Source: Planctomycetota bacterium (GTDB lineage: Bacteria; Planctomycetota; Planctomycetia; Gemmatales; Gemmataceae). From it: a stretch of 64,000 bases of DNA. This document shows positions 22,669 through 23,814 of this stretch, one piece after another. Below the pieces are notes generated by a model that had not been told where the DNA came from, searched no databases, and saw only the letters and a program-made list of their open reading frames with translations. The stretch is from contig JAKBCS010000002.1 in the NCBI GenBank assembly GCA_021807595.1, positions 2,178 to 66,177 of the forward strand, in the 5' to 3' direction. The number at the start of each line of letters is the position of its first letter. Position 1 is the first letter of the stretch. The translations under genes and the position numbers were made by a program.

Positions 22669-22954
22669 GAACACCGGCTCTTCGAGAGACGCGCTCGATC
22701 CGTCGGTGAGAAGCAGAAAATTGGTCTTCCCAAAACACAAGGGACAGGGTATACGCCCCCCTCGTTAGTGGAAATCAAACGCAGGCCATGAAAGGGATCG
22801 CAGAGAGAAGCAGCAGCCGAGTTTCGCTGTGTGCGGGTGTTTGCGGGAATACCAGCACTACCCACCCTCCTGGGTAGGAGCATCTAGTTCGCTGGAACCA
22901 GTGGTTTTGGGTCGGCCACTCCGGCGAGCGCTTCGCAGTGGAACTCATGTCGGA

Positions 22955-23072
22955 CCGGGAGCCGGACCATCGCGTCCGGCTCCCGGGGATACACTCGGCC
23001 GGCGCGGGACCAAGAGCAGACTCGCTCGCCTCTTCGGAGGCGAGCGAACGCACTTTTCTTCCGCGCCGGCCG
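22955..23072 (+). other. cluster of nested GC-rich hairpins; candidate 3' end of an unannotated RNA or a compound terminator
   Basis: H1 is 22955..22967 pairing with 22974..22986 (13 bp, perfect). H2 is 22996..23007 pairing with 23061..23072 (12 bp, perfect). H2 encloses H3, which is 23022..23032 pairing with 23037..23047 and is capped by a TTCG loop. On the plus strand H3 is followed by CACTTTTCTT. Confidence 0.3.
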
Positions 23073-23111
23073 ACTTCCAGGATACGATTTCCTCGGCGAG
23101 ACCGTACTTTC

Positions 23112-23513
23112 CTAATCCAAGAAGTCCACCAAGTCGCGCAGATTCTTTTTGCCGATGCGTCCGGCGATGTCCTTGATAGTGCGCAGATCCTTCCACGGCA
23201 CGGAGTCGTGAGACGTGACCGCGTGCGGCTTCGCGGCGACGGTGGCGGTGGCGGCGGCGGCCTCGACATCGCTCTTCCTGGGCCGACCGCGCTTCTTTCG
23301 TTTTCCGCCAAGGCCGGCTTTGCCCCGCAGGGTACTCTTGTAGGACGAAATCATGTTGGCCGTCATGTCGACGTCGAAATGTTCCTTGATGAACTTCTGA
23401 ATTTCCGACGGCGAACCATCGGGACCCAGATTGCTCATCGCCTGGCGAACGGCCTCCATCTTGTTCGTCCTTGGGTCGGAAACGGCGTCTCCCTTCGGTC
23501 TACCTCGTGGCAT
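23112..23513 (-). CDS. small basic DNA-binding protein with two AT-hooks and a linker-histone (GH1/H15)-like helical core
   Basis: 133-aa ORF. The AT-hooks are PRGRPKG (aa 2-8) and KRKKRGRPRK (aa 71-80). Residues 19-63 (MEAVRQAMSNLGPDGSPSEIQKFIKEHFDVDMTANMISSYKSTLR) align without gaps to the H1/H5 globular helices as I remember them. Confidence 0.6.
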   Translation of the reverse strand: MPRGRPKGDAVSDPRTNKMEAVRQAMSNLGPDGSPSEIQKFIKEHFDVDMTANMISSYKSTLRGKAGLGGKRKKRGRPRKSDVEAAAATATVAAKPHAVTSHDSVPWKDLRTIKDIAGRIGKKNLRDLVDFLD

Positions 23514-23814
23514 TTCGCATTCTCCCCTTTCAGGTGTCCGTTAAAAAATAGTATGTGCCGTCGGTTGACCGCTCTCGATCGCGTGTGTGTCCTGCCGCGT
23601 TGGGTTACATTCCGTCATACCTATGCAACCGCCGACTTGCACCTATCTTACATTCCTTGGCGTCCATTGCAATTCAATAATAGATATTTTTAGGACGACT
23701 GGCCAAGCGCGGCGCGCGATTTTTTTGTCCGATGACTCCTCGCTCCAAATCCAAGGTCGATCCTGTTCTTGAACGCGGCGCGTTCATCGGCCATAATCCA
23801 AGGATGGTCAACCA

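Follow-up and report, generated by a model that had tools for sequence, protein, structure and literature searches.

Does a planctomycete encode a linker histone equipped with AT-hooks? The question arises from a single gene within a 64,000-nucleotide stretch of contig JAKBCS010000002.1 from a Gemmataceae bacterium (the whole of which is referred to below as the window), where an open reading frame (ORF) at positions 23112..23513 of the minus strand encodes a protein that a preliminary description had presented as a linker-histone (GH1/H15)-like core combined with two canonical AT-hooks. We show here that the ORF is a genuine conserved gene, that its product joins a domain predicted to fold into three helices to an AT-hook retained in nearly all of its close relatives, and that it is not a demonstrable relative of the eukaryotic linker histone H1. 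We consider it probable that the protein is a small, basic planctomycete DNA-binding protein, with a nucleoid-associated or global regulatory role, and that it represents an undescribed family.

The protein family and its domain layout

According to the ORF listing, the gene encodes 133 amino acids (aa) from an ATG start to a stop codon, and its first portrayal as small, basic and stand-alone is borne out by an exact ORF, an isoelectric point (pI) of 10.2, with 27 lysine and arginine residues against 16 aspartate and glutamate residues, and a monocistronic organization. Its close homologs number 125, with E-values down to 5e-75, and the named ones are all from Gemmataceae, while a HMMER search of 1.84 billion cluster representatives returned 830 at E<=1e-3, the family clusters being defined at 50% identity. 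When species-representative genomes were scanned with the narrow alignment, the gene was found in 12, all of them Gemmataceae, Gemmatales or unclassified Planctomycetota, and one distant relative adjoins planctomycete-specific PSD1/PSCyt2 genes. Because the position of the gene is syntenic in 11 genomes, and because neither plasmid relatives (no tblastn match in 72,556 plasmids) nor phage relatives (no PHROG family matched) were found, we conclude that it is chromosomal and vertically inherited. A mobile-element or defence origin was rejected on the same plasmid and phage searches. Overall, the family looks like part of the vertically inherited planctomycete core, with expression signals that are both strong and conserved.

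An NCBIfam scan of the query returned nothing, a search of PDB sequences with the single query gave no meaningful match, and the only Pfam family that matches the query is AT_hook (PF02178); a description of the family was found neither in Pfam, NCBIfam or PDB nor in the searched literature. The wider family, with its roughly 830 clusters (50% identity), is uncharacterised, and no relative of it is present in Pfam, NCBIfam or PDB. Some of its members do carry names: the entries P0007, P0043, P0084 and P0254 are called 'ribosomal protein L19E' or 'translation initiation factor IF-2' in their source database, and since no Pfam domain backs these labels they look like compositional mis-annotation of a basic, Ala/Lys-rich protein. 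An SDE2-like chain retrieved with the narrow family profile (E 0.039) and weak SDE2_2C Pfam matches were judged compositional, reflecting a basic, Ala-rich sequence.

To describe the anatomy of the family we used alignment A1, of 31 close homologs, together with distant relatives that were inspected, and four parts could be distinguished: a basic N-terminal arm, a 50-residue domain, a flexible basic linker and a conserved C-terminal module (Table 1). The modules recur in a variable number, in that among 269 relatives one copy of the domain is followed by the C-terminal module in 203 and two copies are followed by it in 30, with three domains present in some. AlphaFold2 places the three helices of the domain at aa 18-29, 35-46 and 52-65, with a predicted local distance difference test score (pLDDT) of 80-89 in the full model and of 90 in a model of the domain by itself, and the domain consensus, sKmEAVRrALxxLGxDAxPxxIQxfxKxxFGxxMsxxxISxYKS, extends without gaps over 130 diverse copies (alignment A3). 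Helix 3 holds the residues S56-S57-Y58-K59-S60, which are invariant in A1. Beyond it no beta strand is predicted, and aa 66-108 are of low confidence or disordered, with the central AT-hook lying inside this segment.

The AT-hooks are confirmed. PF02178 is matched with 19.1 bits, above the gathering score of 17.4, over two stretches at E<=10, one of them at E<=1, and both PRGRPKG at the N-terminus and KRKKRGRPRK at aa 71-80 are found where they had been placed. The description of two canonical hooks holds insofar as both sequences are present and the Pfam match exceeds its gathering score, but evolution has fixed the central one alone: KKRGRP[KR]K occurs in 119 of the 120 close homologs, and in A1 K74-R75-G76 is invariant and R77-P78 at least 90% conserved, whereas the N-terminal RGRP is found in 38 of the 75 close homologs that have an N-terminal extension, the rest having RGKP or RGKA. 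Among distant relatives any GRP is seen in 30 of 149 and RGRP in 15, a K/R-rich linker being present instead. Since RGRP is near-universal in close homologs and rare in distant ones, the canonical hook is an elaboration, within the Gemmataceae clade, of an ancestral basic linker, with the central hook alone having become fixed.

That the N-terminal hook is translated follows from two conserved features, namely the Shine-Dalgarno sequence AAAGGGGAGA, which stands 6-8 nucleotides (nt) ahead of the M1 codon and is nearly invariant across the window and 10 of the 11 Gemmataceae orthologous loci, and the N-terminal extension, which is kept at the protein level; together they identify M1 as the start. 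About one third of the database entries (86% query coverage, for example P0002, P0077 and P0082) begin at the internal Met19 and are without the N-terminal arm. As the DNA of the closest genome with a Met19-start entry (L008) encodes the full MPRGRPKG N-terminus after a conserved Shine-Dalgarno sequence, many of the Met19-start entries are probably start-codon mis-calls.

The C-terminal module is present in a single copy, at the C-terminus, in relatives that have anywhere from one to three copies of the preceding domain. Eight of its positions, D109, K114, R119, G121, L125, L128, V129 and L132, are invariant in A1, and its consensus in alignment A6 reads IxLxDIxxVKxLxxRxGxxxLRxLIDxL. No Pfam match was obtained when such segments were scanned alone, and no relevant PDB relative was retrieved with the profile. 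Two amphipathic helices of 10 residues are unlikely to be stable alone, and the module presumably mediates self-association or the binding of a partner. Two candidate identities were tried and set aside: an SAP/HeH fold, for which hhalign of A6 against five SAP sequences gave 0.8% probability, and a ribbon-helix-helix fold, dropped on finding that the VapB and PSK_trans_fac Pfam matches fall on helix 1 of the N-terminal domain.

The linker-histone resemblance

Could the three-helix domain be a true, very remote homolog of GH1/H15, making the protein a bacterial GH1 plus AT-hook, plant-HMGA-like chromatin protein? At the level of pairwise comparison the proposal has some substance. Residues 19-63 can indeed be aligned to chicken H5 without gaps, as the proposal had it, with 11 identities over 45 positions; when the bacterial segment was shuffled 5000 times, 7 shuffles equalled this number at any offset, so that the likeness exceeds chance modestly in this single pair. 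The register chosen by hhalign is a different one. A block of the form IQK(Y/F)IKxH(Y/F) had been regarded as near-diagnostic, a view that did not withstand scoring against a hidden Markov model (HMM) built from real H1 proteins: the query reaches 8.8 bits and has no match to the Pfam family Linker_histone (PF00538) at E<=10. Three of the 31 close homologs do match PF00538, the best with an E-value of 0.0043, but all three fall below the gathering score. Linker_histone lies outside the top 25 Pfam families both for 150 distant members and for 130 isolated domains, and the 130-sequence domain profile (A3), searched against PDB sequences, retrieved no H1 or H5 chain at E<=10, though PDB contains many.

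Profile-to-profile comparison gave an ambiguous signal. Aligned by hhalign to an H15 profile of 28 diverse globular domains, cut from retrieved H15 proteins, A3 obtains a score of 19.8 with 24% probability and P=8e-4, which stands above reversed profiles (10-11) and above column shuffles (mean 9.6, standard deviation 2.1), of which 1 in 150 equals the real score; yet the alignment is confined to helices 1-2 and includes a 2-residue gap, and its P-value would be non-significant in a library-wide search. Similarly, 44 of 332 real family members reach at least 10 bits with the H15 HMM, compared with 0 among reversed or shuffled controls. How these scores are distributed within the family speaks against common descent, the median being 8.6 bits in the Gemmataceae sub-branch and 1.9 bits in the wider family, and the H15-like 'IQKFIKxHF' flavour is limited to that same sub-branch. 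We take the resemblance over helices 1-2 to be faint but real, and of a kind that would be expected among helix-turn-helix (HTH) and winged-helix proteins whose helix 2 is amphipathic. It lacks specificity, falls short of significance at the scale of a library, and is not ancestral to the family. Because the likeness is concentrated in the Gemmataceae sub-branch, the pattern argues for lineage-specific convergence on the amphipathic helix-2 pattern rather than for shared ancestry.

Structural comparison places the domain in a broader neighbourhood. With the full model, the best Foldseek match in PDB has an E-value of 0.67, so that nothing lies below 0.6, and H1.0 chains appear at ranks 5 and 8 (E 1.5-1.9), in the company of PadR, Zur, Rok, the KAT6A winged helix and African swine fever virus (ASFV) I73R; GH1/GH5 structures are not the nearest neighbours. 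With the domain model (pLDDT 90), no H1 is present in the top 50 PDB matches, the best of which has an E-value of 1.8, and the list comprises a TEA domain, the HTHs of the ISCth4 and Mos1 transposases, I73R, Zur/Fur, Rok and the KAT6A winged helix. A search of the viral BFVD with the full model gave a best E-value of 0.13, which is not significant. The neighbours of the domain model are all DNA-binding HTH or winged-HTH proteins, none of them significant, and for convenience we refer to the domain as an HTH domain below.

The Pfam results point in a related direction, in that HTH_33 (PF13592), the winged HTH of IS630/Tc1-mariner-type transposases, leads the matches and is found in many more members than Linker_histone, namely in 52 of the 150 distant members and 34 of the 130 isolated domains, all below the gathering score. 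The best E-value is 1.9e-4; a member examined individually, P0123, reaches 18.7 bits where the gathering score is 25, and the query itself has no match to this family in Pfam. The similarity falls on helix 2 and the next turn (IQxFvKexFGi), and ISCth4 and Mos1 are among the top Foldseek neighbours, but the present protein has no transposase domain and its family is chromosomal and syntenic.

The wing, a beta-hairpin and one of the defining features of H15, was looked for and not predicted, and we do not file the protein as H15 for this reason. Of the fold that had been anticipated, the three helices, which many HTH families share, are predicted and the H15-type wing is not; an H15-specific core finds no backing in a PF00538 match, a significant Foldseek match or a wing, and the H15 signal in profile searches is sub-threshold throughout. 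The notion that the wing is replaced by the second AT-hook fares better in part, given that no wing is predicted and that a canonical hook does occupy the wing position, but the H15/GH1 relatedness that it presupposes is unsupported. The protein has in common with H15 and plant HMGA proteins a helix-loop-helix-turn-helix order, a similar amphipathic helix 2, reading IQKFIKEHF where H5 has IQKYIKSHY, and basic hooks on the C-terminal side of the domain; unlike them it has no wing, no long K/A/P-rich H1 tail and no significant profile or fold match. Nor does the architecture as a whole agree with the plant-HMGA-like arrangement that had been proposed, or with animal HMGA: plant HMGA proteins join a bona fide GH1 domain to about four hooks, and animal HMGA proteins carry at least three hooks in a chain that is otherwise disordered and ends in an acidic tail. 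We find two hooks, alongside two folded modules, no acidic tail and an unsupported GH1 domain. Taken together, these results make true homology with GH1/H15 very improbable, and the gene should not carry a bacterial linker-histone annotation. Were the core a genuine, extremely remote prokaryotic H15/GH1 relative after all, in a Gemmataceae GH1 plus AT-hook chromatin protein analogous to plant HMGA, an eventuality to which we assign a very slight chance, there would be consequences for how linker histones are thought to have originated and for the condensation of planctomycete nucleoids.

A proposed mode of DNA binding

If the protein is read as a DNA-binding HTH protein, the closest parallel for its working mode would be the DNA-binding domain of SufR (COG2345). 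Structural work on Mycobacterium tuberculosis SufR has shown that its RGRP hook, carried by the wing loop of the winged HTH, enters the minor groove, while the major groove is occupied by helix alpha3, so that A/T-rich DNA is recognised in both grooves (bioRxiv 10.64898/2025.12.26.696629). The present protein likewise has a recognition helix followed by an RGRP hook at the wing position, with the hook beginning about 10 residues past helix 3. By analogy, we propose that helix 3 with its invariant SSYKS would lie in or along the major groove while the AT-hook would enter the adjacent A/T-rich minor groove, resulting in a two-module recognition that would be driven by DNA shape, as experiments have demonstrated for SufR. 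The C-terminal module might then provide dimerisation or higher-order association, allowing the protein to bend, bridge or coat AT-rich DNA in a genome with a guanine-plus-cytosine (GC) content of 61%, in a role that would be nucleoid-associated or global regulatory rather than operon-specific. The analogy with SufR does not extend to the whole protein, as an iron-sulfur (Fe-S) sensor domain is absent, the C-terminal module is a different one, and the hook lies in a disordered linker and not in a beta-hairpin; Pfam scans of the query and its relatives, and an NCBIfam scan, returned no SufR- or ArsR-type family.

Other bacterial AT-hook proteins are few. Before SufR, only WhiB7 and CarD were counted in a December 2025 preprint (bioRxiv 10.64898/2025.12.26.696629), and both CarD of Myxococcus xanthus, with its HMGA-like C-terminal domain, and actinobacterial WhiB7 use canonical RGRP hooks that target A/T-rich DNA in GC-rich genomes (PMC2919716). 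The present protein shares the canonical RGRP hook with these two, but in CarD the hooks are joined to an RNA polymerase-binding CarD_CdnL_TRCF domain and an acidic region, in WhiB7 the hook is joined to an Fe-S WhiB domain, and neither protein has an HTH beside the hook or the C-terminal module found here. To these the present gene adds an entire clade whose members have a canonical RGRP hook fixed beside an HTH domain.

With the nucleoid-associated xenogeneic silencers H-NS, Lsr2, MvaT and Rok the likeness lies in overall design: a small basic protein in which an association module, a flexible linker and a DNA-binding domain are combined with a preference for AT-rich DNA that an AT-hook-like element exerts in the minor groove, association and preference alike being presumed in the present case. 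Rok in particular has a winged helix and is among the non-significant Foldseek neighbours. The order of the modules is inverted, however, with the DNA-binding domain N-terminal and the presumed association module C-terminal, and a true RGRP hook is present in place of the Q/RGR 'AT-hook-like' loop; the query matched none of these families in Pfam or NCBIfam. The protein is not a member of the SufR, H-NS/Lsr2/Rok, CarD or WhiB7 families.

The same elements could also make up a sequence-specific transcription factor, acting as an autoregulator or on a small regulon, in which the HTH would confer specificity and the AT-hook would contribute affinity only, as in SufR and WhiB7. These two proteins use the combination of HTH and AT-hook, a conserved AT-rich block adjoins the candidate -35 hexamer of the gene's own promoter-like region (Table 1), and a dimerising module joined to an HTH is the classic layout of a repressor. 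We regard this main rival as unlikely, since a target operon is not suggested by any conserved function common to the neighbouring genes, no ligand-sensing domain is found, and the protein is very small and highly basic, with a low-complexity linker and tandem-HTH relatives. All this is more in keeping with an architectural protein, although no single feature settles the matter. An architectural or global role is the better fit on account of the presumed association module, the small size and basicity, the relatives with tandem domains, the strong and conserved expression signals, and the lack of a link to the function of neighbouring genes.

Several points weigh against a nucleoid-associated or global DNA-binding protein. 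The term HTH relies on a predicted topology and on sub-threshold Pfam matches, and all structural matches are non-significant. The C-terminal module, from which we infer self-association, has no known relative. With GRP present in 30 of 149 distant members, AT-specific reading of the minor groove cannot be the ancestral function of the family. The earlier suggestion that it is an abundant nucleoid protein is plausible. Finally, its role may be related to RNA, given that AT-hooks are able to bind RNA and that an ultra-conserved RNA lies immediately downstream of the gene (see below). With these reservations, the gene offers a concrete candidate for an architectural or global DNA-binding protein in Planctomycetota; we know of no dedicated protein basis for the unusually condensed nucleoid of these bacteria.

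The transcription unit and its candidate structured RNA

The features of the gene, of its product and of its flanking regions are collected in Table 1.

Table 1. Features of the AT-hook gene, its product and its transcription unit, in window coordinates
Feature	Position	Strand	Basis
Coding sequence (CDS), 133 aa + stop	23112..23513	-	ORF list; 125 homologs, E down to 5e-75; 830 cluster representatives
N-terminal AT-hook-like arm PRGRPKG, aa 2-8	23490..23510	-	Second Pfam AT_hook stretch, E<=10
Predicted three-helix HTH domain, aa 18-65	23319..23462	-	AlphaFold2; 130-sequence gapless alignment; Foldseek neighbours non-significant
Central canonical AT-hook KRKKRGRPRKS, aa 71-81	23271..23303	-	Best Pfam AT_hook stretch, aa 73-82
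Ala/Thr-rich low-complexity flexible linker, aa 82-104	23202..23270	-	pLDDT <50 at aa 83-96 and 100-102; length and sequence vary among homologs
C-terminal two-helix module, aa 105-133, VPWKDLRTIKDIAGRIGKKNLRDLVDFLD	23115..23201	-	Predicted helices aa 110-120 and 122-131
Shine-Dalgarno sequence GGGGAG	23522..23527	-	8 nt before the ATG here
Candidate -10 hexamer TAAGAT, TG before (extended -10-like)	23645..23650	-	Within invariant TGTA(A/T)GATA, 11 loci
Candidate -35 hexamer TTGCAA (TTGCAT in most orthologs)	23667..23672	-	Within invariant block GATTGCA, 11 orthologous upstream regions aligned
AT-rich block AAAAATATCTATTATTGAA + T-run, just upstream of the candidate -35	23673..23692	-	Conserved in upstream alignment; local GC ~0.49
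Structured noncoding RNA (ncRNA) block, candidate 3' untranslated region (3'UTR) or co-transcribed ncRNA	22807..23087	-	~281 nt, directly 3' of the stop codon
Intrinsic-terminator-like hairpin + U-run, probable transcription-unit end	22730..22761	-	Terminator scan match 22761-22739 (-)

The block of about 281 nt that follows the stop codon is ultra-conserved. It begins about 30-40 nt after the ortholog stop in the loci L001-L011 (about 80 nt in L004), and is nearly invariant in 12 Gemmataceae genomes whose proteins are 54-86% identical, making it more conserved than the CDS itself. Its fold in the window has a z-score of -8.7 relative to shuffles, and RNAalifold predicts 89 pairs in three domains. 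One is a long hairpin of about 100 nt, with compensatory changes in 10 pairs; another is a perfect hairpin of 13 bp, which is invariant; and in the third, which is multi-branched, a long-range helix forms the closing stem. Several G-U pairs that never vary are compatible with the minus strand only. No real match was found in Rfam 15 or with ARAGORN. The block is present in one copy per genome and adjoins the AT-hook subfamily only. These observations make it a candidate new structured RNA, which may be an unusually constrained 3'UTR or a co-transcribed ncRNA, and as an RNA block without an Rfam family it constitutes a separate lead.

Such an arrangement raises the possibility that the protein works with or on this RNA, as an RNA-binding protein or ribonucleoprotein partner whose hooks would bind RNA, or that the RNA controls synthesis of the protein. 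Extended AT-hooks do bind RNA, and the block is directly 3' of the gene and on the same strand in 11 of 11 Gemmataceae loci with the AT-hook subfamily, is not found beside more distant relatives, and is highly structured as well as more conserved than the CDS. The co-location may nonetheless reflect nothing more than a shared terminator or a stabiliser of the 3'UTR, the wider protein family exists without the RNA (L012-L014), and the HTH fold and its structural neighbours are DNA binders. An RNA-directed role for the protein appears quite improbable on this balance, and that protein and RNA form a functional pair of some kind only marginally less so.

Downstream of the block, and separated from it by a spacer of variable length, a hairpin of the form CGAGG..GGCGTATA..CCTCG is followed by TTTTGGGAAGACCAATTTTC, and the transcription unit probably ends here; this terminator block, ACTAACGAGG..CGTATA..CCTCGTTTTGGGAAGACCAATTTTC, is conserved in orthologs.

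At the other end of the unit, the comparatively AT-rich upstream region that had been noted at the outset is confirmed, its intergenic GC content being about 49-51% against 61% for the window, and in all orthologs the upstream region lies about 10 GC points under the local average. Alignment of the 11 orthologous loci reveals two invariant blocks, GATTGCA(T/A) and TGTA(A/T)GATA, which are spaced by 16 nt and resemble a -35 and an extended -10 element; we infer from this conservation and from their resemblance to consensus that they are promoter hexamers, from which a 5'UTR of about 125 nt, starting with the conserved GTCGTTAGTTGG, is predicted. A generic promoter scan picked other, overlapping hexamers (TTGGCC..TATTAT). 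The promoter-like region, 23645-23700 (-), is strongly conserved across the 11 loci, and the AT-rich block upstream of the candidate -35, AAATTATCTATTATTG, with the T-run beside it, could be an UP-element or an autoregulatory site for the AT-hooks.

The gene is present in a single copy in the window, convergent with a CbiE/T-like gene and divergent from a beta-lactamase-family gene. Its neighbours, which encode HemD, a PMT_2 glycosyltransferase, the beta-lactamase-family protein, CbiE/T and L25, have unrelated functions, and the upstream HemD-like gene and the PMT_2 glycosyltransferase are syntenic in 11 of 11 loci. The beta-lactamase-family gene (PF00144; 23815-25107 of the window, plus strand) sits between the AT-hook gene and the HemD-like gene, and as it is found in 5 of the 11 related loci and not in the other 6, it represents a variable insertion within an otherwise syntenic region.

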